Positions 11,902-29,607 of a stretch of DNA of 64,000 bases are shown piece after piece. Position 1 is the stretch's first letter, and every line of letters begins with the position of its first letter. The notes under the pieces are model-generated. The model did not search any database. It worked only from the letters and a program-made list of their open reading frames with translations, and was not told the DNA's origin. The DNA lies in the NCBI GenBank assembly GCA_019913005.1, contig JAIOHL010000124.1, forward strand, positions 31,107 through 95,106, in the 5' to 3' direction. The translations under genes and the position numbers were made by a program. The stretch is from Anaerolineae bacterium. Its GTDB lineage: Bacteria; Chloroflexota; Anaerolineae; Aggregatilineales; J027.

Positions 11902-13569
11902 CTAATTTAGGCTGTCAATAATTCGTTGCAATAATTCTTCGTTTAGGAATGACCCCTTTTGCAAAAATGATTCTACCTGTCCGGCAAGGCGGCTGCGTTC
12001 GACAGGGGTCAGTTCTTTGGCGCTGAGTACAATCACCGGAATGTCCCGTAATTCAGGGGTGGCCTTTAAACGCTCGACCACCTGAAAGCCATCCATTTCC
12101 GGCATCATCAAATCCGTCACAATCAAATCGGGCTTTTCTTGCATAGCGATTTCAAGCCCTTCCCGTCCATTTTGGGCAATGGTGACTTCATGGCCTGCCC
12201 CGCCCTCCAAAATTCGGCGAATCAAACGGGCCGAATCTTCATTGTCTTCAATCACCAACACACGCCGCGCATTGGATGTGCTGACCTTGCCAACCTCAGT
12301 TAAGAGACGATCCGTCGGCAGCGATGGAGTACGACTGGCGTTCGAAATATCCACTTGTTTGGCCCAACGCTCACCCAAGATTTCCTTCTCAACCGGGAAG
12401 GTATGGCCCGTGCAGTTAAACACCACTACGTCGTTGGGTTTGATGACCCCGCGCCGCACCAATTTGACTAATCCAGCAAAACCGACAGCGGTGGCTGGCT
12501 CAACCGAAATACCATCATTCCGCGCCAAAATGCGGGTGGCTTCAAAGGCTTCCTCGTCGGTGGCACTTTCGGCGGCCCCGCCATACTGCTGCATCAATTC
12601 ATACAGTAGTTGATAGGCCCGCCCGGGATTGCCGGTGCTCAGAGTCGCAATGACCGTTTCAGGGTTTTCAACGGGCACGGCCACCGACATCCCATTGTTA
12701 AAAGCATCTACCATCGGGGCACATCCGGTAGATTGGATAATCCCTAGCGAAGGCACCTTGTCTACCAAACCAAGCTCTAGCAATTCTTCAAAGCCCTTTG
12801 CAGCACCGATTGGCCCCATACCGCCGCTGACGGGTTGAATAAACCAATCCGGGGCACGCCAACCTAATTCTTCGGCAATTTCATAGGCGATGGTTTTCAT
12901 ACTTTCCATCGCGGCAATATTTTTGATGCCCTGATCGTAATGAATACCTTGACTTTGGGCAAAACGGACAGCGATTTCTTTGGTTTGGTCATAAGTCCCG
13001 GTAACGTTGACCACCTCCGTCCCATACAAGGCTACCTCTCGAATTTTATCACTAGGCACGAGGTTAGGGAAAAAAGCCCAAAGTTTAATCGCGGCGCGGG
13101 CAGCATAGGCCGAATAAGCAATGGCGACATTCCCCGTACTAGCGACCACAGCTTCTTGAATACCCAATTCCGCCATCGCCGAAATCGCAACTGAGGCTTG
13201 GCGGTCTTTAAAGGAATTGGTCGGGCCTTGACGCTCGTCTTTGATATAGAGATATTTCAGCCCCAGCATCGCGCCAACATTTTTGGCATGAATGAGGGGG
13301 GTATCGCCTTCACCCAACGAGACGATATTTTCGGTATGCTTAATCGGCAGCAGTTCATGATAGCGCCACATGCCACGCTTACGAGTAATAATTTTTTCGC
13401 CCCAGTTGTCACGGCGCAGGGCGTCCAAATCATAACGGGCATAGAGAATATCGTCCCCACAGGTCGGGCAACGTTTGAGCGGACGTTCATAGACGCTGTG
13501 CCAGCCACAGTTTTTACATTCAAGGTGAATCGGTTTCACCTGTGTCGAAGAAAGTTGATCTACGGTCAC
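11902..13569 (-). CDS. Threonine-synthase-like PLP enzyme (fold type II) fused to a C-terminal receiver domain
   Basis: N-terminal CxxC/CxxC ribbon, SLGEGDTPL, TNSFKDR (PLP Lys121), ASTGNV, EPATA and NCTGH. C-terminal VLVIEDN...VTDLMMP...LSA...LQK receiver. GTG start overlaps the TGA of the upstream kinase. Confidence 0.9.
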   Translation of the reverse strand: MTVDQLSSTQVKPIHLECKNCGWHSVYERPLKRCPTCGDDILYARYDLDALRRDNWGEKIITRKRGMWRYHELLPIKHTENIVSLGEGDTPLIHAKNVGAMLGLKYLYIKDERQGPTNSFKDRQASVAISAMAELGIQEAVVASTGNVAIAYSAYAARAAIKLWAFFPNLVPSDKIREVALYGTEVVNVTGTYDQTKEIAVRFAQSQGIHYDQGIKNIAAMESMKTIAYEIAEELGWRAPDWFIQPVSGGMGPIGAAKGFEELLELGLVDKVPSLGIIQSTGCAPMVDAFNNGMSVAVPVENPETVIATLSTGNPGRAYQLLYELMQQYGGAAESATDEEAFEATRILARNDGISVEPATAVGFAGLVKLVRRGVIKPNDVVVFNCTGHTFPVEKEILGERWAKQVDISNASRTPSLPTDRLLTEVGKVSTSNARRVLVIEDNEDSARLIRRILEGGAGHEVTIAQNGREGLEIAMQEKPDLIVTDLMMPEMDGFQVVERLKATPELRDIPVIVLSAKELTPVERSRLAGQVESFLQKGSFLNEELLQRIIDSLN

Positions 13570-16500
13570 GATGCTAAATTCGCCTCAGTTTCTCGGACGG
13601 CCTTGATAAGATCGGTCTCGACAAACGGTTTGACCAAATGGTTGGTCGCCCCAAGCCGATAGCTGTGCTGGGTATCGGTACTGATACTGCATACAATCAC
13701 CGGAATGTGATAGGTCTGATCATTGTCTTTCAGTTTTTCCAACACCTGCCAACCATTCCGATTGGGCATGTTGATGTCAAGCAAAATCATCATGGGGTTA
13801 TGATTGGCAACCATTTCTTCTGCTTCTTCGGGGTTGGTTAGGCCAATGACCTGCCAACCTTCTTTGGTGAGATAACGACGATAGAGATTAATCATGCCCA
13901 ATTCGTCATCAATTGCCAAAATAACCTTCTGACGGGAGGGCTGACGTTCAGCTTTGATTTCATCTACCAAATTATTGAAGTCCGTGCCGAATTCTCTGGT
14001 ATCGGACATCTCCTCTTCGGCAATTTCGGCTGCCGACGGAGGGGGTGGTCCTAGCGGGATGGTAACATAAAAGGTTGAGCCGACCCCCTCTTGGCTTTCC
14101 ACCCATAACCGTCCACCCTGTAACTCTGCCAACGACTGGGACAGTGGCAGACCCAAACCTGTACCCTCAGCGGAACGAGTGGTGGAGTTGTCAATTTGTT
14201 GGAACGCCTCAAAGATCGTATTGAGATATTCCTGTGGAATCCCGATACCCGTATCCCGCACCGCAACGGTAATCATGGGCGGTTCAACGCCGTTTTCAAT
14301 AAAAGCACTGAGAGTAATGCTCCCTTGTTCAGTGAATTTGGCAGCATTAGAAATCAGATTGAATAAGATTTGGCGGGTACGGAATTCATCCCCAAACGCC
14401 TTGTCAATAGACTCTTCAATCTCGGTATGCAGACGAAGATTCTTGTCGCGGGTCAAGCCGATGGCGCTGGACATCACCCCCTTGATGACGGGAGCCAGTT
14501 CGAAGTAATCCAGCGAAAGTTCCATCTTACCCGCTTCGATCTTGGCTTGGTCGAGGATGTCATTCACCAAACCGAGCAGATGTTTCCCGCTGGAATGAAT
14601 AATCTGGATGTCTTGCTTTTGCATGTCATTAATCGGGCCGTCAATGCCCTTCAAAATGACACTTGAGAAGCCGATAATCGAATTCAGCGGGGTGCGGAGT
14701 TCGTGACTCATAGCAGCAAGGAAATTCGTCTTGAGCTGGTCAATTTCACGCAGGCGTTCGTTGGTGCGCTGCAATTCCTCGACCAGCAAGGTGCTTTGAA
14801 CAACCGCCGAGACCGCTGTACTGAGGGCTTGCAGCAAGCGTAGGGTGTCTTCGCCAAACTGGGCCTCGCGTTGGCCTTCCAAGCCCATAACCCCAATCAG
14901 GCTTTCACCACTGGTCATCGGAAGGTAAATCGCGGAACGGGCTGAAACATCCATTGGGGTGTAGGGGCCAAGTTCAAAATTTGGCACGATGATCGGGGCG
15001 CGGGTTTCCGCAACTTGCCCGGCTAGGCCCTCACCAATGGCAACTTTGACAGTGGGTTCAATCGAATGTAGGGTCTGTGAATCGCCCTCTTGGACGGCAA
15101 TCACCATTGCTTGAGCCGCTAACCGATTGCGCCCGACTTCATTGAGGAAAAAGACCACACTGCTCGCGTCCATACGATTTGCCAACACCTGACTGACCGT
15201 TTCCAGCATCACCGAAAGGTTAGGCATGGCGGCGGCGAAGGTGGTGACATCAAACAAGAAGGCCATTTCACCAGCACGCTGCTGGGAGATTTCAAACAAC
15301 TGGGCATTATCAATGGCGACGGCTAGTTGGTCGGCCATTGTAGTCAAAGCCTGCACGTCATCCTCGGTAAACAGACCCGCTTGATTCGACTGCACGTCCA
15401 ATGCGCCCACAACACGGCCTTTCACAACTAGGGGGAAGGCGATTTCAGAGCGTGTATCGGGCAGGTGGGGATTGGGCCGATGGGTTTCACTGAGCGCCGT
15501 ATCCGCTACCAAGACGGGCATACCACGACTGGTGGTTTGCCCAATGACGGAACGTGACCCGACAGGCAGACTGTGATTCAGGCTCAACAATTTTTGCCCC
15601 GCTTCACCTGTCGAAGCACGGAGGATGGCCTTCTGTCCGGCAGCATCCACCATAAAAATCTGAACATGGTCATATTGGAAAGCTTCACGGATGAGGTCTA
15701 CCACGCGCGGGAACAGTTCGTCCAAATTCAAAATAGAGGTCGCAGCACGGCTCACCTGTGCCGAGGTTGTTAGTTGACGGGCACGCAGTTCGGTTTGTTC
15801 AAAGAGACGCTTGTTTTCCAACTGCACGGCGGCTAAGTCAGCCAGTGACTGGTAGATGCGAATTTCGCGTTCTTGATGCTCACGGGTCTCGGCTGAGGCC
15901 AACAAAATTGCGCCGATTAAGCGGGTGGGGGTGCGCAAGGGTACGATCACAAACGAACTAATACGCAAGGCCTTATAACCCAAGCGGGCATCGGTTGAGA
16001 TCGCGGGATCGCGGGAAACATCATCCACCCACTTCATCCTAACGGTTGCGAGATCGTTCCAGAAAGGTAGTTGATTGCGCGTAAACCGAAGGCCTTGCAA
16101 GTCAACCAGTTGGTCACGTCCCCATGACGTGGCGATTTCGAGTTCGGCATTTTCGCTGTTCCAATCTTCGGAACGCAGACTAAGCAGAAATACCTTGTCC
16201 ACAAGCGCATCGGCGGCATAGTCAATCACTGACTGTACAATTTCATCACGACTTTCGGCGTTGGCAATGGCACGGCTGGCTTGATAGAGGACACCAGTTT
16301 CTTCCAATGATTCCTGCGTCTGCCTAAACAGCAGGTCATTTTCAACCAAATAGGCTGCTGCGTCGGCCAATGTCGTAATGAATTGATATTCATCGGGCGT
16401 GAAAATATGAACTTCGCGGAAGCCCATCGAAATACGCCCGACAACGCGACCACCGACGGACAGCGGTACACTTAGAATAGACTGATAGGGCGTTTGGATG

Positions 16501-19500
16501 GCCCGTAATTGACGGACGATCTGATTCATCGTCGCTTCGGACTCGTCATCAATGGACTGGATGTAATATTCATCACGGGTCATTGGGTCAAAATCGCCAA
16601 TCGGCTCACCGGTTTTTGGCACAAGCGGCAGACTGGGTATTTCAGCAAATAAGGGGTCTTTGCTCCATTCCAAACCAAAATAGAAAGAGGCAATATCTTC
16701 TTGCGTGCGCTGTAACAAAACATCTACCCGTTCAGGATTGAAATTCAATAGCTCCATGCGGATGGTATCCAGCATTTCTTCAAGGTCACGCGCCTCGGCA
16801 ATGCGGCGACTGCTGCGATAGAGATTGGCAACCGCACGCAGGGCATCTTGGGTACTTTGGAATAGGAAAATACTATCCAATGCGAGGGCCGTCTGGTCAG
16901 CGATGGCCGTCATAAAACGCCGATCTTCGGCCATAAAGGAATGTTTATCGAAATAGACCACCGCAAACCAACCAAGAGTACGACCTCTGGCCCGCAACGG
17001 AATTGAAGCAAACGACTGGATACCGCTTTGAATGGCCTGCAAGCGCATATTAAATTCAAGGGTTTGGTCAAGAAAACCGATGCTCTGATCAATGTTAGAG
17101 ACAATAATCGGCTCTTCGCTCATCAACAAATTACGTGGTAGCGCCAGCAAATCTACATCAGTAACCCCCGCATAACTTTCCGGCCATGCCGCCACCACAC
17201 GGGTTTGCAGCGGCCCACGATCCATGCCTTCTTGCAAAACCACATAGACCTGATTGGGCATCAAAGTCAGCAACTGATTGACTAGCACATTGGCGAGGTC
17301 ATTAACGCTGGAGGCGGAGGTAATTTGGCGATTGGCCTCATACAGCGCGGTGGTTTCGCTTAGGCTATCCTGCAATGCTTTTTCGAGTTCGCGCAGTTCG
17401 GTAATTTCTTGGAAGACCGCCACTACCGACGAAATCTCACCGCCCTCATTGCGAATGGGCGCGACGTTTGCGAGCAAGTCCACCCGGCGACCATCCGGGT
17501 ATTCCACCGAGATGTTTTCTGCACTGACGATGGCCCCCTCACGCAAAGCAATGGTGGTGGGGAATTCTTCAGACGGGTAAAGCTCGTCCGTGCCCAGTTT
17601 ATAAATCGGGAAGGTGTTTGATGAAAACAGAGCTTTATTGACCCCGCCGCCAAAAAGATCAACAGCGCGTTGATTGGAAAGCAGGCTGTTGCCACGCGGG
17701 GCTAACAAGAGCACGCCGGCAGGCATGGCTTCAAGGGTAGATTGCAGTGTCTGGCGTTGATTTTCAATGGCCGCAAAGAGCCGCTGATTTTCGGTAGCGA
17801 TGGCAAGCTGGCTGGCAAGCGTGGTTGCCAATTGAATATCGCGTTCATCCAAATCGTGCTGTGATGCACGCCGACCAATTAAGAGCGCCCCGATCACCAC
17901 TTCATTGCTGGTCATGACCGGAACGGCTAGATGCTTGCCATATACGATATGTTCTTGGGCAGAAAGCTTGCCGAACGTCGGGTGAACCCGTTCATTGACC
18001 AAAACGACTTGGCGAATTAACACGGATTCAGTAACGGCATTACGGTCACGCTTCAGGTTCATACGTTGCGGCATAAAGGGGGTGTCGCCTGATTCTTGGG
18101 GTGAAAAGGCCGCTACCTGACGGAGCGATTGCCCATCCGTATCCAAAACCCCAAACCACCAGCGGCCAAAATCACCGGGGTCAGACACGGCGCGGAACAG
18201 GCGGTTTACGTCAGACTCAAAATCCGTGCTGATACGACTAGCCAACTGACCTGCGTCGGCCAATGCCAATGCTCGCCGCGCTTCTTTTTGGACTTCTTCT
18301 AGCAGGCGGCGATTTTCAACCGCGATTGCCAATTGGTCACCAACTGCCGAGGTAAAACTCATGTAATTTTCGCTAAAGGCACGCGGCGTTTGACTACTGC
18401 ACACCAAAACCCCAAACCATTTTGCACCCGTAACCAGCGGCATAAGATAGAGGGTTTCGGCATTAAACGTCCTCAGCAGGTAGCCCAAGATTTGGTCAGT
18501 GTCCTCAAGATCGTTCAGTTCATGGGCATGAATGAGCATGGGGCTACGGGGGGCAAGTTCAAATTGGGCCGAAAGCCCCTGTTGTAATAAAGGTACACGC
18601 TGACCAGTCTCCCAAGCGGAGATACTGCCGATACGCGACCACAGATGCGCGACAATGACATTTGGAGCCAAATGGGACGGGAAAGGATCGGCCAACAAAA
18701 TCGCTAGGCTATCAAGATTTTCATAATAGCCTAACTGCTCAGTGATAAGGGCATAAACGGCTTCAATATTAAGTTCAGCAGCACTACTGACCGTGCGGGC
18801 CATTTCATAGAGACGCTGCGATTCGCCAAGCGCCATCTGGGTTTGCTGGAATAGGCGGGCATTGTCTACCGCGAGCGCCACACGTACCGCAACCGCATCA
18901 ATCAAAGCCTGTTCATCTTTGCTCAACTGGGCACGCTGCGGTGCTTTGGTCTCGATCTGCCCAATTGGTTTGCCACCCACTGAAATTTGAGTGCTGTATA
19001 CGGAATGTTCATCACTTGGTGGAGGCAGCAGATTGCCGTTTTCTGGTGTATCAGGTTGAATCGGCTTGACACCGATCAGGTCATATTGATAACCCAACTG
19101 CACATCATCGGGTTGGATACGGGCAAATTCTTCCCATGCTTTTTCGGTTAAGCGCTGATTGAGCAAGGCAACTTCATCCACTCGCTGTTCAAGTTCTTCA
19201 ATCAGGCGGGCATTGTTGATCGCAATCGCCAATTGGTCAGCCAACACTTGGAAAATTTCAATATCTTCCGGGCTATAGGCTTCGGGGCGGATACTTTGAA
19301 TATCCAACGCACCGATCACTCGGTCTTCAACCTTGAGGGGCAGGGCCATTTCTGAGCGGGTATTGGGCAATTCCACATTGGGCTGCCAAGGAACTTCAGT
19401 GGAAGTGGTGTCGCCGGCGATGACCGTGACACCCAGCGCGGTCACACGGCCAATCACGGAATTTGATCCAACCGCCAGTTTATGTTTTTTGGCAAGAAGG

Positions 19501-20972
19501 CGCTGTCCGGCCTCGCCTGTGCTGGCAACCAAGACAGCATACTCGCCAAGATCATCCATTAAGAAAACTTGGGAGTGGTAGTAATCGAATTGTTCGATAA
19601 TGCGGTTAATGGTGCGATTCAAAACAAGACTTTGGTCGCGCAATCCGGTAATTTCGCGGCTGATTTCCGCAACAAGGTCAAGGTCACGGATACGGGCTTG
19701 TACCCTCGCCTGCAAATCATCCACCAACGTTTGGGTGCGCTCGGTAACATTATTAAACAAGGTGGCAACCCGACCAAATTCGTTGGATTCGACAGCGGGG
19801 AGTCGGACAGTCAAATCACCGCGATTGACCCGCGCCAAGCCATCCGCAATGGTTTCAAAACGGCGAGAAATCTGAGTGGTCTCATACCACAACAAGATAC
19901 CTGTGATACCGAGCAAGCCGAGAAATATGGCCGCGAATATCCCTAGTGCCAAGCGGGTTGGGCCAGCGACTTCACTGGCTTCCATAGACACGATCACCGT
20001 CCATACTGGCTGACTGGTCGTATCCGATAGGCTGGAAAAGGGTCGTGTAATAGAAGTGGCCGCCAAATAATCGGTGTTATTTTGGCGATACTCAATGGCT
20101 TCTTGAGGGAAGTCGGTTAGCAACGTATTTGCCAATGAACCCGTTAGTTGTTCGCCAACCGAGGTCGAGCGACCATAGAGTAAATTTGGCTCGGAGGCCG
20201 CAATATAATAACCATCCTCATCTACCACATGAATAATTTCATCACTGCTTTCGCGTTCTGTAATGCCCCGAACAAGCCAATCTATGTCCATATCTATGGC
20301 GAGAAGGGCAATTACGGTATTTGTTTCGTCCAAGATAGGAGTCGTCAACGTCACGATTTGCTGGAAGGGTTCTGTTGGACGGCCCGTGGCATCTCGCACC
20401 ACCACCACATCCGAAATCCAGAACTGTCCTGTACGGCGCAATTGCAGACCCGACTGAACAAATTCTTCGCTGCGGCGATTTCTGAGATCGGAGATTGACA
20501 CAATCTCGATATTGTCGGTTCGCCCCGAACGCTCCAAAGCCACCAATTCACGCCCACTGATGCCGACCAATCGGATCGCGTGATAGAGGGGCCGACCAAT
20601 GAGCAGTTCCTCAAATCTCCGCGTGACAGATTCGCGGGCGAGATTGTCTACCTCGCCACTGGTGCTGCGGCGATCCAGTACATCAACAATGCTGGGGGTA
20701 ATATAATTGGTAGCAAGGTTATCGAAGTCGGCGGCTACGATTTCAAACGGAACGCTCAACTGCTCACCATTTTCATCCGCATGTTCGCTCAAGTCGTCGT
20801 TGACATTGGTACGCACGACGTTGTTGATCTGGGTAGTGACAGCAATCAATACTAAGAAAGACATCACCACAAACGCTGTAATAATTATCAGCAGTTGTGT
20901 GCGGAAGGGACGGTTAATGAACCAACGAAATGGCCCAAAGCTAGAATGTGGCTGTATTTTTCGGTCTTGCAT
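13566..20972 (-). CDS. Giant membrane-bound hybrid histidine kinase: TM-Cache-TM-HAMP-~9 GAF (one degenerate)-PAS-HisKA-HATPase-REC
   Basis: Repeated LA(I/V)A(I/V)(E/D)NxxL GAF ends; PAS (LEAMPAGV...FQEIT) lying within the GAF array; SHELRTPLNS, NLISNAAKFT, DTGIGI and GTGLGL boxes; terminal receiver AIDD...LLDINMP...KP. Confidence 0.93.
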   Translation of the reverse strand: MQDRKIQPHSSFGPFRWFINRPFRTQLLIIITAFVVMSFLVLIAVTTQINNVVRTNVNDDLSEHADENGEQLSVPFEIVAADFDNLATNYITPSIVDVLDRRSTSGEVDNLARESVTRRFEELLIGRPLYHAIRLVGISGRELVALERSGRTDNIEIVSISDLRNRRSEEFVQSGLQLRRTGQFWISDVVVVRDATGRPTEPFQQIVTLTTPILDETNTVIALLAIDMDIDWLVRGITERESSDEIIHVVDEDGYYIAASEPNLLYGRSTSVGEQLTGSLANTLLTDFPQEAIEYRQNNTDYLAATSITRPFSSLSDTTSQPVWTVIVSMEASEVAGPTRLALGIFAAIFLGLLGITGILLWYETTQISRRFETIADGLARVNRGDLTVRLPAVESNEFGRVATLFNNVTERTQTLVDDLQARVQARIRDLDLVAEISREITGLRDQSLVLNRTINRIIEQFDYYHSQVFLMDDLGEYAVLVASTGEAGQRLLAKKHKLAVGSNSVIGRVTALGVTVIAGDTTSTEVPWQPNVELPNTRSEMALPLKVEDRVIGALDIQSIRPEAYSPEDIEIFQVLADQLAIAINNARLIEELEQRVDEVALLNQRLTEKAWEEFARIQPDDVQLGYQYDLIGVKPIQPDTPENGNLLPPPSDEHSVYSTQISVGGKPIGQIETKAPQRAQLSKDEQALIDAVAVRVALAVDNARLFQQTQMALGESQRLYEMARTVSSAAELNIEAVYALITEQLGYYENLDSLAILLADPFPSHLAPNVIVAHLWSRIGSISAWETGQRVPLLQQGLSAQFELAPRSPMLIHAHELNDLEDTDQILGYLLRTFNAETLYLMPLVTGAKWFGVLVCSSQTPRAFSENYMSFTSAVGDQLAIAVENRRLLEEVQKEARRALALADAGQLASRISTDFESDVNRLFRAVSDPGDFGRWWFGVLDTDGQSLRQVAAFSPQESGDTPFMPQRMNLKRDRNAVTESVLIRQVVLVNERVHPTFGKLSAQEHIVYGKHLAVPVMTSNEVVIGALLIGRRASQHDLDERDIQLATTLASQLAIATENQRLFAAIENQRQTLQSTLEAMPAGVLLLAPRGNSLLSNQRAVDLFGGGVNKALFSSNTFPIYKLGTDELYPSEEFPTTIALREGAIVSAENISVEYPDGRRVDLLANVAPIRNEGGEISSVVAVFQEITELRELEKALQDSLSETTALYEANRQITSASSVNDLANVLVNQLLTLMPNQVYVVLQEGMDRGPLQTRVVAAWPESYAGVTDVDLLALPRNLLMSEEPIIVSNIDQSIGFLDQTLEFNMRLQAIQSGIQSFASIPLRARGRTLGWFAVVYFDKHSFMAEDRRFMTAIADQTALALDSIFLFQSTQDALRAVANLYRSSRRIAEARDLEEMLDTIRMELLNFNPERVDVLLQRTQEDIASFYFGLEWSKDPLFAEIPSLPLVPKTGEPIGDFDPMTRDEYYIQSIDDESEATMNQIVRQLRAIQTPYQSILSVPLSVGGRVVGRISMGFREVHIFTPDEYQFITTLADAAAYLVENDLLFRQTQESLEETGVLYQASRAIANAESRDEIVQSVIDYAADALVDKVFLLSLRSEDWNSENAELEIATSWGRDQLVDLQGLRFTRNQLPFWNDLATVRMKWVDDVSRDPAISTDARLGYKALRISSFVIVPLRTPTRLIGAILLASAETREHQEREIRIYQSLADLAAVQLENKRLFEQTELRARQLTTSAQVSRAATSILNLDELFPRVVDLIREAFQYDHVQIFMVDAAGQKAILRASTGEAGQKLLSLNHSLPVGSRSVIGQTTSRGMPVLVADTALSETHRPNPHLPDTRSEIAFPLVVKGRVVGALDVQSNQAGLFTEDDVQALTTMADQLAVAIDNAQLFEISQQRAGEMAFLFDVTTFAAAMPNLSVMLETVSQVLANRMDASSVVFFLNEVGRNRLAAQAMVIAVQEGDSQTLHSIEPTVKVAIGEGLAGQVAETRAPIIVPNFELGPYTPMDVSARSAIYLPMTSGESLIGVMGLEGQREAQFGEDTLRLLQALSTAVSAVVQSTLLVEELQRTNERLREIDQLKTNFLAAMSHELRTPLNSIIGFSSVILKGIDGPINDMQKQDIQIIHSSGKHLLGLVNDILDQAKIEAGKMELSLDYFELAPVIKGVMSSAIGLTRDKNLRLHTEIEESIDKAFGDEFRTRQILFNLISNAAKFTEQGSITLSAFIENGVEPPMITVAVRDTGIGIPQEYLNTIFEAFQQIDNSTTRSAEGTGLGLPLSQSLAELQGGRLWVESQEGVGSTFYVTIPLGPPPPSAAEIAEEEMSDTREFGTDFNNLVDEIKAERQPSRQKVILAIDDELGMINLYRRYLTKEGWQVIGLTNPEEAEEMVANHNPMMILLDINMPNRNGWQVLEKLKDNDQTYHIPVIVCSISTDTQHSYRLGATNHLVKPFVETDLIKAVRETEANLAS

Positions 20973-21001
20973 AAAAGCCTCTTGAACGCCTCAGGTGCGT
21001 T

Positions 21002-23194
21002 TTATTGGGAGGTCAATGGGTCAATGTTTAACGAAATGGTGGTTTCTGGCGTACCGAGTGCAAGGCCCAACTCCTTGACCGCCACCTGCAAAATCTGTCG
21101 AAAATCGGTTTGAATGCTCAGTTTTTGCGAAATCTCATTGAGCAGCCGTTCACGCTCAATTAACTGCTGGCTTTGTTCAAACAACCGCGCATTTTCCGCC
21201 GCAATTGCAAACCGCTCCACCAATTCTTCTGCCGTTTGCAGCATCCCTTGATTAAATTGGGCTACCTCAACGGTACATTCAATCGCGCCGATCACCTCAC
21301 CACGCAAAACAACTGGCAAGGCAAAGGCAATCTGATTTTCGGTTACTTTGGCTGTCACCGGTTTGCGGCGTTGGATGGCCTGCTTTTGCAAAAACGTCCA
21401 ATCTTTTAACGCGGCGGGCTGTCCTCCGGTGCTATAGGCAAGGTCGTGATGCTGCGTGAAATATTCCTGCCAACCTTCACGTGCCGCCTGCGGGCTTTGA
21501 ACATCGCCATTCGCACCATTTAAGGATGACTCGCCGACTAACAGACCAAACAAGCCAGTGGCGAGTTCGGTGGTCAGCGCCAAGAAAAAGCTAAAGTCGC
21601 GTTCCGAAAATGCCTCTAGCGCAACGCTGTGCAAATCTAAGATGCCGATTAGTTGCTCACGTGCAAACATGGGCACGGCCAGTTCGGTGCGGGTGTGTTT
21701 AAAAACATCATGTTTGGTATAGATCGGTGCTTTTTCATAATCCACGACCAATACCGGACGATTTAGCATAGCGGCGTGGCCTATTGGGGTCTGATTATCT
21801 AATCCAACACGATAACCCTGTACAAATAGGCGGCGACCTTGTTCACCCGTGCCAACCCGCATGACCGCGCTGTTGGTGGCCTCGTCTATTAGAAATACTT
21901 GAGCATAATCTACGTTAGGATAGTGTTGGCGCACCGAGCGCACAAATTCTTCGAGCAAAACATTCGCTTCAGAGACGGTTCGCAGCAAACCAGCCGTCTC
22001 CGTAAATAGGCCGACCTGCTTGGATAGCCGCGTTTGGCGGGCTTCGGCATCGGCGACGCTATTTTGAAAGACAGTGGTCAGGTCTACAAACGTATTATGC
22101 ACCTGCCCAATTTCATCGGAGCGTTTGATAGTCGAGAAATCAGGGTCACGTTCACTTAGGGCAAATTCGACCATCATGCGGTTTAGGCGGGACAACGGCG
22201 GGACAATTTGTTGATAGGTCAGCAGTAACCACACGGCACTTGGAACAAGTAGCAGCACAATCGCCCCACCTATCACCAAAGGGATATAAGTGCTTACGAG
22301 TGGGTTGACCACTTCGGAAAAACGCATTTCCGTGACCAGAATCCACGATGTACCCCCCACGCGCTGATACGTACCTATCACATCTGCCCGCAGTAAGGGG
22401 CTTTCATAGCGTTGGGGGTCAAGCCGGGCACTGTTGTCGGACAAAGCCGGATGCCGACGGTAATTCTGGAAAACCAAGACCCCGCGTTCGCTGGTTACAA
22501 GCAACTGCCCATTCTCATCCAACAAGAAAAGGTCGGCGTTGGGTAAATTTTGGAGTTCGGGTTGTTCACCAAAACCGCGCAGGATGTTCGGTAGATTGTC
22601 CGTCGCCTCGCTGTCGAGATTTTGGGTCAGCACCACATAGCCAATCTGCTGATTGTCTCCCTGAATCGGCACAATAATATCAAGCAGGGGTTCATTAAAT
22701 GGGCCGGGATAAATTGAGCCGATGGTCGTATCGGTGATCTTGCGACTGATAATTTCCAACGACTTTTGATTGACCTCGATATTGGCTTGGCCTGCCTGTG
22801 CTACGGTAATCAGACTTGGATGCATCAGGCGAATACGCACAAGAGATAAATTGCTCGACCAAATACGGTCAAGGGTCTGATTTGCTTGTTGAATCGCGGA
22901 GGGGTTGGTACCGTTGATGTCAAGGGCGGCCTGATAGAGTGCAACATCGTATGGCTGAACAGCTAGGTTGGTGGACGCCGTCGTCAGGTCATCAAGCCGC
23001 TGTGCAAAAGTTTCGGCCTTAACATCAGTAATAATTTCAACAGTGTCTTCCGCTTGATTGGTCTGGGCTTGAAAGCGCAACGTTAGGGCAATTATGCCAA
23101 TAATAATCAGGGGAATCAAAATGGTCAGCAGGAAACCGAGGCTAAATTTCGCCCGCAGAGGCCAATCAAAAGGTCGGGGCAGATTACGTTCCAC
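21002..23194 (-). CDS. Kinase-less membrane sensor: TM-Cache-like-TM-HAMP-GAF-degenerate GAF-stub
   Basis: Two TMs, HAMP (PLSRL...DEIGQV), GAF (GTGEQGRRL...TRTELAVP) and FAIAAENARLF. No H-box or ATPase motifs. Confidence 0.85.
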   Translation of the reverse strand: MERNLPRPFDWPLRAKFSLGFLLTILIPLIIIGIIALTLRFQAQTNQAEDTVEIITDVKAETFAQRLDDLTTASTNLAVQPYDVALYQAALDINGTNPSAIQQANQTLDRIWSSNLSLVRIRLMHPSLITVAQAGQANIEVNQKSLEIISRKITDTTIGSIYPGPFNEPLLDIIVPIQGDNQQIGYVVLTQNLDSEATDNLPNILRGFGEQPELQNLPNADLFLLDENGQLLVTSERGVLVFQNYRRHPALSDNSARLDPQRYESPLLRADVIGTYQRVGGTSWILVTEMRFSEVVNPLVSTYIPLVIGGAIVLLLVPSAVWLLLTYQQIVPPLSRLNRMMVEFALSERDPDFSTIKRSDEIGQVHNTFVDLTTVFQNSVADAEARQTRLSKQVGLFTETAGLLRTVSEANVLLEEFVRSVRQHYPNVDYAQVFLIDEATNSAVMRVGTGEQGRRLFVQGYRVGLDNQTPIGHAAMLNRPVLVVDYEKAPIYTKHDVFKHTRTELAVPMFAREQLIGILDLHSVALEAFSERDFSFFLALTTELATGLFGLLVGESSLNGANGDVQSPQAAREGWQEYFTQHHDLAYSTGGQPAALKDWTFLQKQAIQRRKPVTAKVTENQIAFALPVVLRGEVIGAIECTVEVAQFNQGMLQTAEELVERFAIAAENARLFEQSQQLIERERLLNEISQKLSIQTDFRQILQVAVKELGLALGTPETTISLNIDPLTSQ

Positions 23195-23195
23195 G

Positions 23196-24878
23196 TTAAT
23201 TCACCTCTACTTCAACACCGGGTTGTGCTTCAATCTCGGTGGGTACACCCAGTCGGACAAGTGTCTGGTCAGTGCCAAGCGAACGATTAAACACTTGCGA
23301 GGTCACATTCACCAAACGGGCCAGATTACGGGCATCCTGCAATTCTGCCGCGACCTGACTCACCAGTTGTTCACGCACCGCCACCCGCTGGACTTCATCA
23401 AATAGACGCATATTTTCAAGGGCCAACGCCAAACGGTTGGTCACTTCTTTGACAAATTCGACTGTTTGGTTTGACCATCCCTCACCACTGTTTTCAAAAA
23501 TAACTTCCCCAATCGTTTGAGAACCAACCGTCAGCGGGACCATCATGCGCTGACCACTGCCTGTTTGATCTAATTGAGGAGCATCTGATAGGGGGGTCGT
23601 CGCAGGCTGCCAGCGGCGCAAGGTGCCTTTATCCCACTGAAAAGCGGTAAGACGTCCACTTTGAGACAGATATGACCCCCACGCCACCCCAACATTTTCT
23701 TGGCTCATACGGCTGACTTCGGCCTGATAGCGCAGTGCTGAGACATTGGCCGCGTCCATTTCTTGGCGAAGTTGTTCAAAATCTGTCCCCAATGTTTCAC
23801 GTTGGAGGGCCGTCGCCAGTTGATAAGCCGCCGCTTGATAAAGCTCGACCTCCCCCTGCGTCGGAATGACATTACTCGAAAGCTGCAAATCCAGCACTCC
23901 GATACACTGACCGTCGCTGGTCAAAAGTGGGAAAGCCAATTCACTGTTGGTCGAAGGCAAAAATGCCTCACGCTGCGGTACGGACACATTCCGATTAAGA
24001 TTCACCGCCGATTTGCGGCGATAGGCTTGGGCAGGGCCGCTTGGGTTATCAAGGTCAATACGATAGGCCTCACGCAACAAACGCTGACCACTAAGGCCAG
24101 TCGCGGCAATTAGTACAAGGCGAGGTGTTTCGCCCTGTAAACGATAGATGAGCACATGGTCAACTTTTAGTTCGACGCGCATGAGGTCGGCAACGGCTTG
24201 GAGGGATTGCGAGACTAAGCGTTTTTCATTTAGCTCCGCACTAACCTTTGCCAAGCCGACAATGGACTGTTGAACGTCATCATAACGCTTGACGAACTGG
24301 GCAATATAGTCGAGAAATTGATAGATCAACACCGCTGCAAGTATCAATGAGGGATAAAAAACGGTGGCGATATTGCCCGCTAATTCACGTGAGGGAATCG
24401 GTGATTCAAATGAGTTTGAACTGGTCTGAAAGGCTAAGGTGGTAATTGCTACCCCGGCAAAAAATAGCGTCGCCAACACCAACCCGCGTACACCAATTAG
24501 CAAACTCGCGGTGAGGATGGGCACAATAAACAGCAGAATGATGATGCTATCGGCACGATAATCCAGCACAAAAATCGTAAAATAGGTGATGGCAATCGCC
24601 AGCGTCATGGCGTAAGCCGCAGTGGACAAGCGACCAATCTGCACCAACCACCCAATGCCAATCATCGCAACCGTAACAGGAAGTAACAGCAAGGTATAGC
24701 CGGTTGGGATGGCTGCATTATCCGCAAGGTCTTGGACGGCCAAAACCAAAATGGTGGCAGTGAGCAAAATAGCGATTACCACACTCAACAGCAAAATCGT
24801 GCGGGCGCGACGCAGATCGTCAGGGGATGTGTAGGGGTATCGAACTTGGAATAGGTTGGAGATAAAATTTATACGCAT
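23196..24878 (-). CDS. Kinase-less multi-TM GAF protein
   Basis: About 6 N-terminal TMs, GAF (ATGLSGQRLL...TNSELAFP) and LALALENMRLF. TAATG overlap with the upstream gene supports the start at 24878. Confidence 0.82.
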   Translation of the reverse strand: MRINFISNLFQVRYPYTSPDDLRRARTILLLSVVIAILLTATILVLAVQDLADNAAIPTGYTLLLLPVTVAMIGIGWLVQIGRLSTAAYAMTLAIAITYFTIFVLDYRADSIIILLFIVPILTASLLIGVRGLVLATLFFAGVAITTLAFQTSSNSFESPIPSRELAGNIATVFYPSLILAAVLIYQFLDYIAQFVKRYDDVQQSIVGLAKVSAELNEKRLVSQSLQAVADLMRVELKVDHVLIYRLQGETPRLVLIAATGLSGQRLLREAYRIDLDNPSGPAQAYRRKSAVNLNRNVSVPQREAFLPSTNSELAFPLLTSDGQCIGVLDLQLSSNVIPTQGEVELYQAAAYQLATALQRETLGTDFEQLRQEMDAANVSALRYQAEVSRMSQENVGVAWGSYLSQSGRLTAFQWDKGTLRRWQPATTPLSDAPQLDQTGSGQRMMVPLTVGSQTIGEVIFENSGEGWSNQTVEFVKEVTNRLALALENMRLFDEVQRVAVREQLVSQVAAELQDARNLARLVNVTSQVFNRSLGTDQTLVRLGVPTEIEAQPGVEVEVN

Positions 24879-25987
24879 TACATTTCTACCCATTCATCAT
24901 CATTGGCTGGCATGTGGACGGGCGAAGACTCCTCTAGAGACTCATCGACCACGGACGGCACAAGCCGAATGAACCCCCGATCAGCCCCCAAAATACGGCT
25001 TAATTCAGCCAGCGATGTGCTTAAAATGGTTTCGACATCAGAAATTCCCTGAAACTTAGCCGTGATGGAATTGATAAACGATTGATAGCGGGCGTTACGC
25101 TGGGCTTCTTCAAATAATTGGGCATTTTGGATGCTGACAGCAATTTGGGCTGCAATTGCGGTCAAAATCTCAATCTCGGCTGCCGTAAAATGATGGACTT
25201 GAGTCAGTGCATCCAACCCCAGTGAACCTAAAAATTGATTTTGGACAAACAGTGGCAAAATCATGACCGACTTGATGCCAAAAGCCATCAGGGTCTCGCG
25301 GTTTGGCCCCAATTCCTCAACCGCCTCCGCCACACTGTCAATAACAAACGGGGCAAGCGTTTCTTTTTGTTTTTCATAGACCACATACCCTGCTAATTGA
25401 ATTTTTTGTCCAATCGCGCCGGTAATAGGATATTCCGCCAAAACTGTGCCATAGTCGGGGGCATGATCGTTAATCACAATCCCCACATGGTCAATCCCCT
25501 GTAGCGCCTCAACAATACTTTGACAGGCGGCCACCAGCACCGCTTCACTGGCAAGCTCGGCGCTAACTCGTTGGGCCACCTGAGAAAGCCCCTCATAGAG
25601 TTCAAGGCGTTCACTCAAAAACGAATCTGTATGTGTCCGGCTGGTAATGGTTTGTTGAAGTTGCCACTGTTGGGTTACGATTTGCGCCCATAATTGGCCT
25701 GCTTCCCAAAAAGATTCTGGATGCTGTCCGGAGAGGGTTAGCTCTAGGGTATAGCCACTCATAGGGAGAGACCAAATTTCACCATTGGAGCGAACCGAGC
25801 GAGTGGCAGATAATAGGGAGGATGTTTGAGAAATCAAACGGTGGCTAGTGAAGGACGGCCATTCGGTTTCAGCCGCCCGGAAAGCAGTTTCGATAAACTG
25901 TTCCAGACTGCTCACCTGCGCTGCTTGGGACGGTAAATCGCGGATAATGGTTCTGAGAGAAGCCAAATAAGCCAGCGCATCTTGCAT
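24878..25987 (-). CDS. Soluble GAF-domain protein without an output domain
   Basis: GAF (GIDHVGIVI...ILPLFVQNQFLGSL...IAVSIQNAQLF) followed by the same terminal stub as its neighbours. Confidence 0.82.
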   Translation of the reverse strand: MQDALAYLASLRTIIRDLPSQAAQVSSLEQFIETAFRAAETEWPSFTSHRLISQTSSLLSATRSVRSNGEIWSLPMSGYTLELTLSGQHPESFWEAGQLWAQIVTQQWQLQQTITSRTHTDSFLSERLELYEGLSQVAQRVSAELASEAVLVAACQSIVEALQGIDHVGIVINDHAPDYGTVLAEYPITGAIGQKIQLAGYVVYEKQKETLAPFVIDSVAEAVEELGPNRETLMAFGIKSVMILPLFVQNQFLGSLGLDALTQVHHFTAAEIEILTAIAAQIAVSIQNAQLFEEAQRNARYQSFINSITAKFQGISDVETILSTSLAELSRILGADRGFIRLVPSVVDESLEESSPVHMPANDDEWVEM

Positions 25988-26089
25988 ACGAGTTTCACCG
26001 TTTCAAACCGACTGAGTTCTCCTCAATAGGCTGTCTAATAGGATGAGGAAAATCCCCTGAAGTATTTAAAGGATTCTAGCAATAACACT

Positions 26090-26521
26090 TTATTTCCATT
26101 CCCATACCTGTTCCCCTTGCAACAGACGTTCAATCTGATACGGGAAACGGTCAGGGTCTAGTGGTTTACCTAAAAAGCCATCAAAACCTGCTTCTTTGGC
26201 CTTGCGCATTTGTTCTTCATTCGCCTCGGCAGTTACGGCAACGACGACGGTATCACGCAGTCGTTCGTGAGCACGAACCTTTTGCAACGCTTGGTAACCA
26301 TCTTCATAGGGGAGTCTAATGTCCATCAAAATGAGATCAATGCGGGGCAGCGTATCGGCAAACTGAACGACCTGCCACCCAGATGTCTTCCACTCGCAGC
26401 GTTGGACTCCCATGAAAGCCAACATACGGGCGATCAACACAAAATTCGGCACATTATCTTCTACCACCAGCACATGCGCTTCGCCGGGGTCAACTGAAGT
26501 GCGGTGTCTCGCATCGGTCAT
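26090..26521 (-). CDS. Single-domain response regulator
   Basis: VLVVEDN, LMDIRLP, AVTA and GKP receiver motifs. Confidence 0.92.
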   Translation of the reverse strand: MTDARHRTSVDPGEAHVLVVEDNVPNFVLIARMLAFMGVQRCEWKTSGWQVVQFADTLPRIDLILMDIRLPYEDGYQALQKVRAHERLRDTVVVAVTAEANEEQMRKAKEAGFDGFLGKPLDPDRFPYQIERLLQGEQVWEWK

Positions 26522-26898
26522 ACGCTTTTTCGGCTCCTCAAATAGTGAAGAATCTGGTCTGAAAAGCGGTCAATATCTATTGGTTTAATTATATAACCAT
26601 CACAGCCAGCCTCAAGTGTTATGTCTAAATCAGACTGCATGGCGTTGGCTGTTAGAGCCACCACCGGGATACGCTGTAGGGCCGAGCTTTCACGGATCAT
26701 GCGGGTGGCGGTCAAGCCGTTGATATTCGGCATACTAATATCCATCAAGATTAAGTCCGGTGGATTTTTTAAGGCCAATTGGATCCCCAATTCCGCATTA
26801 TCGGCCTCCTCAAATTCATAGCCTTCTGCCAACAGAATCCGACGCACCAACAACCGATTTTCAAAATTGTCTTCGATGTACAAAATACGTGCTGGCAT
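26518..26898 (-). CDS. Single-domain response regulator, DivK-like (start MPARILY at 26898)
   Basis: ILYIEDN, LMDISMP, ALTANA and IKPID motifs; ATGA overlap with the next regulator. Confidence 0.92.
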   Translation of the reverse strand: MPARILYIEDNFENRLLVRRILLAEGYEFEEADNAELGIQLALKNPPDLILMDISMPNINGLTATRMIRESSALQRIPVVALTANAMQSDLDITLEAGCDGYIIKPIDIDRFSDQILHYLRSRKSV

Positions 26899-26979
26899 TA
26901 GGTCAGAACTCCCCAGCTTGAGTACCCTATCACAACAGATCGAAATGAACAATCGTCGTAGAATTAGTTTAACATAAAT

Positions 26980-27075: not shown

Positions 27076-29607
27076 TTAGCTACGGCGTAACCAACGGTGC
27101 AGTTTTTCGCGGATAAACGCCACACGCGCCTTTGTCCATGCGTTGCTGGCGACATGCTCGGCTTCGCGCTGGGCATCGTGGTCGGCGGCGGGTGGTGCAA
27201 AGCGGTCATGAATGTAAAGATGGGTAATGTCGGTGATGGGGTGCTGACCTTCTGGCACTTCGTCCACAAACACCTGACGGCGTTCTTCGGGAGTCATACG
27301 ATTGTGTACCCCGACCCCCAACCAGTTGCCATAAATCCCTAAACGTGCATAGGCTTTTTGCACCGGATTCAAGCCACCCAAGCCGCGATGTTCCACCCAC
27401 CAGATGATAAAGGCGATAATCAGCACGATCAGCAGCAACGTCACCAAAATGATCCCCAAGATGGTCAGGAAAACACGCCAGAACCCGGCACCACTGTCGG
27501 TCTCAAGGCTGGTAGCCTGTGGCTCCGGAGGGATAGGTGTTGCCGTTGGGGTGAAGGTCGGCGTAAAGGTTGGCGTCGGTGTCAAGGTTGGGGTGACGGT
27601 AGGCGTCACATTTGGTGGCAGGGTTGGTGATTGGGTAGGCGTTGGCGAGGGCGTGGGTGAATTTTGCTGTGGTGGGGGTAGTGTATTGGTTGGCAGCGAG
27701 GTTGGCGTGCTGGTCGGCATGGGCGTAATCGTTGGGAAGGTGCTGTTAAAGCTGACATCGCCGGGACGATTAAGCGGCAGTTCATCGGCAGTCGGCTCGA
27801 ATTCAACCCAACCGAAACCGGGGAAAAAGACTTCGACCCATGTGTGGGCATCGTTTTCACGCACCAGATAACTGCCATCATTGGGGCTGTATGTCCCCTC
27901 AGCAAATCCAGCCGCCATGCGCGATGGAATGCCTTGTGAACGGAGCATCATCACCATTGCCGAGGAATAGTAATTGCAATACCCCTCGCGGATGTCGAAG
28001 ATAAACCAGTCAATCGGGTCAACATTACTGGGTGGAGTTGGGATTTTCTCGTTATACAAAATATTGGCCCGCAGCCATTGTTCAACGGCTTTGGCTTTGT
28101 CATAGGGGGTTGCAGCACCGCTTTGCGAAATAATTTGTTCGGTTAGGCTACGTAATTCGCCGGAAATCGAACCACCCCCCTGCAAATAGGTGCGTGTAAC
28201 CCATTCAGGGTAAATGTTGTCAGCAGGACGTAATTCATCAGCCGAGGCGACACTGATGGAAGAAGTCACGGTGTAATCATCGCCTTCACGGAGAGGATCA
28301 CGGGCACGGATAATCGCCACATCTACCTCTTGATTGCGTCTTACACATTCCGGGCCGCCTTCGGGGACACAGTTAAGTTCCGCATCTACGCCAAGCCCCA
28401 TCTCACGCGGTTGAGGGGCGGCATAAATCAAGGATGAGGCGCTGATAAACATTTCCACATTTTGGACAAGGTCACGACGACCTGCATAATCACCGAGGTT
28501 AAATGACATGCCGGGGCTATCTTTATAGGCCCGCACCGAACGATTATGTGTCCATGTACCATTTTGATAGGTGTCAAAAACCGTTGAGCGCCAATAGAGC
28601 CGCAAATCACTGGTATTGCCCTCAACGCCGATTCGCATTACCTCTCGGTCACTCAACTGCACTGGGCCAGTCAGGTCAAGCCGATCTCCACCATAATAAT
28701 CGGCAGTGGCGATGCCGGGACCTTCGAGTGAGGAAAACAAGCGTGCAAAGAGGTCATTTATTTTTGCCAGTGGGTCGTTGCCCAAAAACTCCTTGATCTC
28801 GTCCCAATAGCCATCGCCATCTTGAATGGGCAGGGCCAACCCAAAAAGAACAGCCATGATGGTCATTGCTGTACCCAAGCGCAAAAAGTTAGTGCGAAGA
28901 TTACGTGGATACTTGACCCGCAGGCGATACCATTGATATTCCCGCGCTTCGATATTGACTTGGATCGTTAGGGGAAGGGCACACAACAAAAAGCCCAAGA
29001 GAAATAGGTCAAGCCGTGCATTGCCCGAATAGGCCATGATGATGGTAATGAGTATGAACCCCGGCGGCAGAATCGCCAACCAGACCCGATTGAGCCGAAT
29101 CAACTGCCAGATGGCATTGTGAGCCAAAAACCAAAACAGCATGGCTAGGAAAATGACAAAAACCAGATTATCCGTACCAACCCCGTTGTTGCTGACCGTC
29201 TCCCCCCAGCGCGACAAGCGATCACCCAATTCCTGCAACCGCCCTTGAAGGGTAAATGGGCCGGGAAGCGATAGAGTATAGACAAGCGTGATGGTGGCAA
29301 AGCCGTAGATACCGCTCAAAACCAATGCCAGCAGTTCGGAATAGTAGCTGCGGGCGAGCAGAAAACTCAATAAGGCACTGATCGTAATGACAGGGTAAAG
29401 TGTGCCAAGACCATCGGCCCAATCAGCGGTATTCAAGGCAAAGGCAGGCATCCACAAGAGTGCATTCACCAGAAACAGGGTCAGCATATCCCCGCGAGTA
29501 AAGGTGCGCCGCCATGCCTGCACGATGGCCTGTTGAATGCGATTAGGCCGGCGCTGCGGTTGACGATTGGGTAATGGATTAGATCGGCGAGATTGTGGAT
29601 AAGCCAT
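27076..29607 (-). CDS. Membrane transglutaminase-like protein (TgpA/DUF3488-type) with a Pro/Thr stalk and C-terminal TM
   Basis: Multiple N-terminal TMs, LYWRSTVFDTY, GYCNYYSSAM (Cys), DAHTWVEV (His), FEPT, then TP repeats. Confidence 0.88.
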   Translation of the reverse strand: MAYPQSRRSNPLPNRQPQRRPNRIQQAIVQAWRRTFTRGDMLTLFLVNALLWMPAFALNTADWADGLGTLYPVITISALLSFLLARSYYSELLALVLSGIYGFATITLVYTLSLPGPFTLQGRLQELGDRLSRWGETVSNNGVGTDNLVFVIFLAMLFWFLAHNAIWQLIRLNRVWLAILPPGFILITIIMAYSGNARLDLFLLGFLLCALPLTIQVNIEAREYQWYRLRVKYPRNLRTNFLRLGTAMTIMAVLFGLALPIQDGDGYWDEIKEFLGNDPLAKINDLFARLFSSLEGPGIATADYYGGDRLDLTGPVQLSDREVMRIGVEGNTSDLRLYWRSTVFDTYQNGTWTHNRSVRAYKDSPGMSFNLGDYAGRRDLVQNVEMFISASSLIYAAPQPREMGLGVDAELNCVPEGGPECVRRNQEVDVAIIRARDPLREGDDYTVTSSISVASADELRPADNIYPEWVTRTYLQGGGSISGELRSLTEQIISQSGAATPYDKAKAVEQWLRANILYNEKIPTPPSNVDPIDWFIFDIREGYCNYYSSAMVMMLRSQGIPSRMAAGFAEGTYSPNDGSYLVRENDAHTWVEVFFPGFGWVEFEPTADELPLNRPGDVSFNSTFPTITPMPTSTPTSLPTNTLPPPQQNSPTPSPTPTQSPTLPPNVTPTVTPTLTPTPTFTPTFTPTATPIPPEPQATSLETDSGAGFWRVFLTILGIILVTLLLIVLIIAFIIWWVEHRGLGGLNPVQKAYARLGIYGNWLGVGVHNRMTPEERRQVFVDEVPEGQHPITDITHLYIHDRFAPPAADHDAQREAEHVASNAWTKARVAFIREKLHRWLRRS
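27540..27735 (-). repeat. Pro/Thr-rich low-complexity coding repeat (TPT...)
   Basis: PTSTPTSLPTNTLPPP...TPTVTPTLTPTPTFTPTFTPTATP inside the transglutaminase. Confidence 0.8.

Follow-up and report, generated by a model that had tools for sequence, protein, structure and literature searches.

In methyl-accepting chemotaxis proteins (MCPs), the MCPsignal domain (PF00015) forms the hairpin tip that binds CheA and CheW, and in systems of the RetS-GacS type a second sensor modulates a kinase by direct protein contact, thereby adding inputs. Sensors without an output domain are common in genome censuses, and how their signal is passed on is largely unknown. Here, three such sensors are described that are encoded on the minus strand of a 64,000-nt stretch of DNA from an Anaerolineae bacterium (GenBank assembly GCA_019913005.1, contig JAIOHL010000124.1; hereafter the window, to which all coordinates refer unless a locus is named). 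The proteins, termed p369, p565 and p730 after their lengths in amino acids (aa), share an operon with two single-domain response regulators (RR1 and RR2), a 2468-aa hybrid histidine kinase and a threonine-synthase-like enzyme fused to a receiver domain (ThrC-REC), and all three end in the same partial GAF domain, termed the stub. They are true output-less sensors and not broken genes, and the stub is a specialized, selected module that is always terminal and distinct from ordinary GAF N-termini. No Pfam or NCBIfam family covers the stub or the whole proteins, and no description of such a stub module or operon was found in the literature library that was searched. The stub is probably where the sensors dock onto common machinery, either the kinase or the response regulators; the reading put forward here, tentatively and at slightly less than an even chance, is that several receptors, each with its own input, use it to feed a single kinase core.

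Three output-less sensors with a shared C-terminal stub

In all three tails, the motif NxxLF(E/D) is followed after about 40 residues by LG(T/A)xxxx(I/V)xL, and only 8-27 residues then remain before the stop, in agreement with an earlier note on this DNA that saw the proteins end within a GAF that is never completed. The stub comprises residues 288-342 of p369 (24962..25126, minus strand; NAQLFEEAQRNARYQSFINSITAKFQGISDVETILSTSLAELSRILGADRGFIRL), 494-548 of p565 (23250..23414, minus strand; NMRLFDEVQRVAVREQLVSQVAAELQDARNLARLVNVTSQVFNRSLGTDQTLVRL) and 668-722 of p730 (21029..21193, minus strand; NARLFEQSQQLIERERLLNEISQKLSIQTDFRQILQVAVKELGLALGTPETTISL), ending 27, 17 and 8 aa before the stop and scoring 72.0, 49.4 and 73.8 bits, respectively, with a hidden Markov model (HMM) of 56 positions (consensus NARLFEETQRRAERERLVSEITAKIRSATDVEAILQTAAEELGRALGASRVFVQLE). 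The E values on the three tails, from best to worst, are 6e-22, 2e-21 and 3e-14, and the HMM matches nothing beyond these tails when the 64-kb window is translated in six frames. The nine GAF junctions of the kinase itself score at most 10.9 bits, compared to 49-74 bits for the tails. Since the stub signature is absent from these junctions, the stubs were not copied from the beginning of the third kinase GAF, and the earlier proposal that the proteins copy the sensory half of the kinase and are cut at that point is not supported.

Each of the three proteins carries a full GAF domain above the Pfam cut-off (p369, residues 134-286, 56.9 bits; p565, residues 229-363, 56.7 bits; p730, residues about 412-546, 51.7 bits). 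A reduced GAF that starts at an invariant tryptophan (AWGSY, GWQEY or AWEEF) is present in p565 (from W405), p730 (about residues 568-667) and the kinase. The input regions differ: p369 (24878..25987, minus strand) is a soluble sensor with no predicted transmembrane (TM) segment, p565 (23196..24893, minus strand) is a multi-TM sensor with 5-6 predicted segments, and p730 (21002..23194, minus strand) combines a TM helix, a Cache-like periplasmic domain, a second TM helix and a HAMP-like segment with its GAFs and stub. The N-terminus of the kinase likewise has two predicted TM segments, and in both p730 and the kinase the two helices flank a weak dCache_1 match (31.1 and 39.4 bits; cut-off 45). 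HAMP scores 23.6 bits in the kinase (cut-off 25) and is not listed by Pfam for p730; more distant members of the stub family exceed the HAMP and dCache cut-offs. In the kinase, the order TM, dCache, TM, HAMP, GAF, reduced GAF is continued by further GAFs with one PAS, HisKA, HATPase_c and a receiver (REC) domain. No HisKA or HATPase_c match is detected in p369, p565 or p730 at E <= 0.01, and the domain pair that defines a sensor histidine kinase, HisKA or dimerization and histidine phosphotransfer (DHp) plus HATPase_c, is found in the 2468-aa neighbor and not in the three sensors.

Alignments support the relationships that had been read from the sequence by eye. p730 is collinear with kinase residues 1-729 (18786-20972), with 24% identity between its residues 284-693 and kinase residues 324-729 (428 columns, E 1e-24), and residues 214-524 of p565 align to kinase residues 434-734. 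p565 has TM segments in place of the Cache domain and keeps the GAF and the reduced GAF. The first 133 residues of p369 (25589-25987) are rich in tryptophan, with W43, W72, W94, W100 and W108 invariant among orthologues, and match no family. A low-confidence model shows helices, a three-stranded unit and a long helix in this region, which may represent another reduced GAF; the AlphaFold2 (AF2) prediction of whole p369 with seven orthologues reaches a mean confidence (pLDDT) of 47.8, a loose secondary-structure hint at most.

The identity of the stub follows from its similarity to solved structures. When a profile of reduced GAF and stub is compared to solved domains, it is exactly the stub columns that align with the N-terminal helix and beta1 of the GAFs 2lb5, 8w26 and 6oap (E per stretch 1.5e-5, 4.5e-5 and 1.9e-11), and the aligned pattern in these structures reads RxxL(I/V)xxIxxxIRxSLDLxxILxTxVxExRxxLxxDRV. 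By sequence homology, the stub is a fragment that corresponds to about the first 45 residues of cyanobacteriochrome-type GAFs, not a GAF domain. The inter-GAF linker helix, alpha1 and a beta1 segment are present and beta2 to alpha5 are absent; a full GAF fold would comprise alpha1, beta1-beta2, alpha2-4, beta3-beta5/6 and alpha5.

An AF2 model of p730 residues 395-730 (134 sequences, mean pLDDT 87.9) contains a canonical alpha/beta GAF, then the reduced GAF as the Trp helix, a further helix, three strands and alpha5, and, in the stub region, a 46-residue helix, a 16-residue helix and a confidently predicted tail that is not a strand. The best Foldseek matches of this model are the tandem GAFs of PDE5A, PDE2A and CyaB2 (entries 3lfv, 3mf0, 1ykd and 1mc0; E 1e-10 to 2e-8). 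Mean-field direct coupling analysis (DCA) of 282 reduced-GAF-plus-stub modules (effective number of sequences about 259) places 19 of the 45 strongest couplings within the stub where about 5 are expected, an enrichment that may be inflated by the small sample and by the stub being the best-aligned region of the alignment. Their pattern is consistent with two antiparallel helices that form a hairpin (i+j about 256) and a tail that returns along alpha1 (i+j about 290) and contacts the linker helix (pair 119-153), and no top coupling connects the stub tail to the strands of the reduced GAF. Model and couplings thus suggest that the stub forms a helical hairpin whose tail folds back. Completion of the preceding reduced GAF by the stub in cis, in the manner of a circular permutation, is not supported, as the non-strand tail in the AF2 model and the missing DCA link agree in speaking against it; in p369 and in protein P0020, moreover, it is a full GAF that precedes the stub.

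A stub-ended family and its operon

The C-terminal ends are retained among orthologues, a point on which the earlier note had made its proposal depend. Orthologues of p369 with 98-41% identity have 369-377 aa and the same end, those of p730 with 93-59% identity agree in length and end, and those of p565 have 563 and 566 aa in the two loci (L007 and L008) that keep the order p369-p565-p730-kinase. The stub motif likewise ends a set of more distant proteins of 427-991 aa, all of them kinase-less and with other input modules. No stretch of p730 is more conserved than the stub, which is 93-100% identical to orthologues that are 60-75% identical overall; unlike this, the p369 stub is not the best-conserved stretch at long range. 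The genes are also tightly joined. The stop of p369 overlaps the start of p565, p730 begins with a GTG one base past the p565 stop and is preceded by the ribosome-binding site GAGGTG, and the kinase ATG is located 29 nt downstream of the p730 stop. The start of p565 is ambiguous, as translation could begin at ATG 24893 (16-nt overlap with p369) or at ATG 24878, which lies within a TAATG stop-start overlap with p369 and would remove the first five residues.

Metagenome DNA runs hold 95-100% of the sampled sequence words from the p730-p369 region, and RNA-seq contigs match this region at 100% identity without indels, although DNA carry-over is possible in RNA-seq libraries. Contigs from bioreactor metatranscriptomes span 11905-26943 at 100% identity; one RNA-seq contig covers RR1, RR2, p369 and the start of p565, and another the p565/p730 junction. 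On these grounds, it is hardly credible that the three genes are decayed kinase fragments left by a recent truncation, by pseudogenization or by an assembly artefact. Only the likeness to the N-terminal third of the kinase speaks for such decay. Against it stand the same ends in paralogues throughout the class and in orthologues as distant as 41-59% identity. Moreover, the abutting or overlapping genes leave no coding remnant behind the stops, the sequence is recovered in independent DNA and RNA runs, and the stub is strongly constrained. Truncation, frameshift and assembly error were therefore rejected on the orthologue ends, the DNA and RNA runs and the gene junctions. In three other loci (L003 from GCA_027494055.1, L089 and L090), several sensor or kinase genes are split into adjacent open reading frames (ORFs), probably by frameshift errors in the assemblies; the fragments that hold the C-terminus still end in the stub.

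To avoid circularity, RR2, which is unrelated to the stub, was chosen as the anchor for a wider survey, and 80 loci from GTDB species genomes of Anaerolineae, the best 80 of 516, were analyzed. These loci contain 238 strong stub hits, three of them cut by contig ends. Among the 235 uncut hits, 226 end within 45 aa of the stop and the remaining nine at 47-64 aa; across the family, 4-64 low-complexity residues separate stub and stop. Of the 80 loci, 65 contain stub hits, and most of these have 3-5. The Pfam annotation of 77 non-redundant members lists GAF in all 77, HAMP in 10 and dCache in 4, and an output domain in none (0/77), with only a few isolated weak matches to non-output families. Continuation of orthologues into output domains, which the earlier note had named as the observation that would overturn its proposal, was thus looked for and not found. 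The 235 family members mostly have 0, 2 or 5-6 TM segments, in correspondence with the three types in the window.

The same picture is obtained beyond these loci. When the reduced-GAF-plus-stub profile is searched against 1.84 billion cluster representatives (50% identity), the best 150 are giant multi-GAF proteins, 94 of which have a kinase core. The stub lies within 45 aa of the C-terminus in 36 of the 150, none of which has a kinase (0/36). These 36 terminal stubs score 37-84 bits (median 67), whereas 621 junctions inside giant GAF proteins have a median of 13.6 bits and reach 35 bits in only nine cases. In a database of 5.8 billion proteins, the stub is terminal in 119 of the 120 best matches. 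Several of the giants (P0146, P0148, P0160, P0161 and others) consist of 6-16 GAF or reduced-GAF repeats with a terminal stub and no kinase core; such GAF-only giants have 1100-2700 aa, with a maximum of 2697 aa. The stub ends a large family that includes these kinase-less giants and is not a local truncation of the sensory half of the neighboring kinase.

A family member is defined here as a protein whose stub match scores at least 35 bits and ends no further than about 65 aa from the stop, with a GAF or reduced GAF before the stub and no output domain, encoded in a cluster with RR1/RR2-type regulators and a GAF kinase. This description applies to p369, p565 and p730, to the sensors of L001 and L003-L008, and in 65 of the 80 RR2-anchored loci. 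The stub is the invariant C-terminal end of a large and old Anaerolineae signaling family, whose members combine a variable input (none, multi-TM or TM-Cache-TM-HAMP) with one or more GAF or reduced GAF domains and a terminal 55-residue stub.

In the window, the minus-strand gene string runs RR1, RR2, p369, p565, p730, kinase and ThrC-REC. The first gene, RR1 (26518..26952, minus strand), encodes a single-domain response regulator whose best NCBIfam matches are the receiver domains of BarA, HrmK and PhoB. It is followed by RR2 (26090..26521, minus strand), the most conserved protein of the system, a single-domain response regulator in whose sequence the canonical acidic pocket, the phospho-acceptor Asp (LILMD), the Thr and the Lys can be read; its C-terminal tail, VWEW(K/Q), is conserved. 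The kinase, with domains assigned by Pfam, occupies 13566..20972 (minus strand). The last gene, ThrC-REC (11902..13569, minus strand), encodes a threonine-synthase-like pyridoxal phosphate (PLP) enzyme with a C-terminal receiver domain (PALP 229 bits, Response_reg 76 bits; TIGR00260 thrC 185 bits, cut-off 167) and an N-terminal CxxC...CxxC ribbon. It is unusual for a PLP enzyme under receiver control to be the apparent output of such a system.

The full string of RR1, RR2, stub sensors, giant GAF hybrid kinase and ThrC-REC recurs in L001, where sensor identity to p730 is as low as 27%, and is found as fragments in L003. In L004, RR1 and RR2 are followed by a run of GAF sensors as far as the contig end, and related sensor arrays are present in L005, L089 and L091. 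Orthologous kinases occupy the same position in L007 (2474 aa) and L001 (2347 aa), as does ThrC-REC in L001 and L003, with 57-62% identity; in L089, two separate ORFs encode ThrC-REC. A contig of the metagenome-assembled genome 'Chloroflexota bacterium CFX10' matches the window at 100% identity. Upstream of the operon, the minus-strand gene at 27076-29607 encodes a TgpA-like transglutaminase (Transglut_core 88 bits, TgpA_N 48 bits) with a long Pro/Thr-rich low-complexity linker followed by a C-terminal TM segment, and appears to be unrelated to the operon.

Candidate partners of the stub

As the three sensors lack an output domain, they must act through protein contacts, and accessory receptors that feed extra inputs, as the earlier note had proposed, are the most economical description. 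The lack of outputs, the varied inputs and the conserved, coupled operon with the kinase support this proposal, whereas the action through contacts is what we infer. For these contacts, the earlier note put forward heterodimerization with the kinase stalk or an inhibitory role, both of which are hypothetical, and the strongly conserved RR2 is an equally plausible partner. Each co-receptor would sense a different cue by its soluble, multi-TM or periplasmic Cache-like input, and the signal would pass along the GAF and coiled-coil stalk to the stub. There, the incomplete GAF would expose a face that is normally packed on the beta-sheet, and this face would serve as the docking surface for the signaling core encoded in the same transcript. 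The giant hybrid kinase would be the most likely partner because its N-terminal third has the same receptor architecture, and RR2 might be contacted in addition or instead. Tuned by several receptors, the kinase would then phosphorylate RR1, RR2 and ThrC-REC, a scheme that would resemble, in its logic only, the control of one CheA by several MCPs.

Several observations weigh against this scheme. The kinase is only 32-38% identical between loci in which RR2 is 85% identical, so that conservation favors RR2 as the partner at least as much as the kinase. The stub may also have a role that does not depend on a partner, should the GAF-only giants occur without a neighboring kinase. The low confidence of the whole-p369 model, the possible inflation of the coupling enrichment and the possible DNA carry-over in the RNA-seq libraries belong on the same side. 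A conservation scan of the kinase shows that its penultimate GAF and the catalytic core are best conserved, and no region indicating a docking site emerged from it.

The conservation of RR2 leads to a different partner. The stub could dock single-domain response regulators, RR2 in particular, with the sensors serving as scaffolds, sinks or phosphatase-like modulators that gate the availability of these regulators. RR2 is the most conserved component of the system: in L001 and L004 it retains 85% identity, compared to 27-42% for the sensors and 61-66% for RR1, it is found in at least 516 species genomes (516 tblastn-confirmed loci in GTDB species genomes), and it is 76-100% identical in the best 80 of these. 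This suggests a hub with many partners, which fits such docking. RR1 and RR2 also head the operon in every complete locus, with an RR1-like gene in 67 of the 80 RR2-anchored loci, and every strong stub hit in these loci lies on the strand of RR2 and downstream of it. However, the RR2-anchored sample is biased towards co-occurrence, and the stub has no similarity to the DHp helices on which response regulators dock. By eye, the stub motif ITxxIRxS resembles the H-box VSHELRT, and a pseudo-DHp was considered for this reason; when 142 stubs are compared to 83 DHp regions with hhalign, only the NARLFEE linker aligns (23 columns), and the candidate was rejected. Docking of response regulators is considered unlikely.

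A second explanation dispenses with kinase contact. Two stub hairpins could form a four-helix bundle that closes the parallel coiled-coil of a homodimeric GAF chain, and the sensors would then be autonomous ligand buffers or membrane-localized binding proteins with a structural cap. Tandem GAF proteins dimerize along their linker helices, as seen in structures of PDE2A and PDE5, and this supports a cap, as do the self-contained hairpin with its tail folded back that both AF2 and DCA indicate and the existence of stub-ended GAF-only giants without any other domain. A mere cap, however, would need neither the beta1-like segment LGxxRxΦxL nor the 93-100% conservation observed in p730, and the operon linkage, the coupled gene junctions and the absence of outputs in all 77 members are hard to explain for autonomous proteins. 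A purely structural role is considered doubtful, with a low probability similar to that of response-regulator docking.

The reduced GAF invites a third explanation, in which the folds are completed in trans. The stub, comprising alpha1 and beta1, would insert into the reduced GAF of the next protein encoded in the operon and finally into that of the kinase, yielding a donor-strand-like hetero-oligomeric chain. In hhalign comparisons, the reduced GAF corresponds to about the C-terminal two-thirds of a full GAF, in agreement with the AF2 secondary structure, although the N-terminal half of this alignment has low confidence. In line with this explanation, the kinase has a reduced GAF but no stub. 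In two giant relatives, P0201 (residues 2073-2263) and P0190 (residues 780-950), a strong internal stub is followed by a reduced-GAF body (GxGYxL...PΦxΦxGxxΦG...) that replaces the usual Trp helix, and this arrangement indicates that stub and reduced GAF can form one compact GAF in cis. On the other hand, the AF2 model shows a confidently folded reduced GAF without any partner and an unpaired tail, none of the top DCA couplings joins the beta1 tail to strands of the reduced GAF, and the match between the numbers of stubs and reduced GAFs is only suggestive. The N-termini that were read in the window, in L001 and in L003 include no acceptor GAF lacking alpha1-beta1. Complementation in trans is considered very unlikely. 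A related and decidedly improbable conception is that of a multi-receptor complex in which the stub proteins and the giant kinase are joined by fold complementation as a GAF-built cytoplasmic array, functionally parallel to chemoreceptor arrays; the orphan alpha1-beta1 of each chain would either complete the reduced GAF of its neighbor, and in the end that of the kinase, or dock onto it.

If the stub is a docking element that connects the sensors to the kinase core, the operon would represent a many-receptors-to-one-kinase architecture outside chemotaxis, in which a partial domain is newly used as an interaction module. One short terminal module in hundreds of paralogous sensors with different inputs offers a testable handle on such signaling. 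The operon ties these sensors firmly to one kinase, two single-domain regulators and a threonine synthase with a fused receiver. In addition, the stub HMM provides an annotation rule for many of the 'GAF domain-containing proteins' of the Chloroflexota that dominate wastewater and anammox reactors.

Comparison with described systems

With respect to its stalk, p730 resembles the tandem-GAF modules of PDE2A, PDE5A and PDE6 (GAF-A/GAF-B) and of CyaB2, in which a long helix that continues alpha5 joins consecutive GAFs. The GAF chains of these phosphodiesterases and of CyaB2 end in a catalytic domain, whereas the stub sensors end after alpha1 and beta1 without an output. The cyanobacteriochrome-type or REC-linked GAFs that the stub resembles most in sequence (2lb5, 8w26 and 6oap) are complete and bind a ligand or bilin; in contrast, the stub is only the N-terminal part that aligns with them. 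In the RetS-GacS type, RetS acts through its DHp domain, whereas the stub proteins lack a DHp and no similarity to one is seen in the stub profile.

The chemotaxis system differs in its parts and agrees in its logic. MCPsignal has no match in the three sensors or in the 77 family members, and neither CheW nor a CheA-type kinase is part of the system; instead, the stalk is built of GAFs, the tip is a partial GAF, and the contact with the kinase is putative. Inside two distant stub-sensor arrays, a gene for a ParA/MinD-like ATPase is present (5036-5803 in L005 and 8797-9582 in L089) and recalls ParC and PpfA, which position chemoreceptor arrays; none of the 80 loci nearest to the window contains this gene, so it does not belong to the core. 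Like the MCPs that act with CheA, CheW and CheY, the stub sensors are kinase-less receptors with varied inputs, often with HAMP and with a conserved distal tip. Here as in chemotaxis, receptors are encoded beside one kinase and single-domain response regulators, to which the ParA/MinD-like ATPase of L005 and L089 adds a further likeness.

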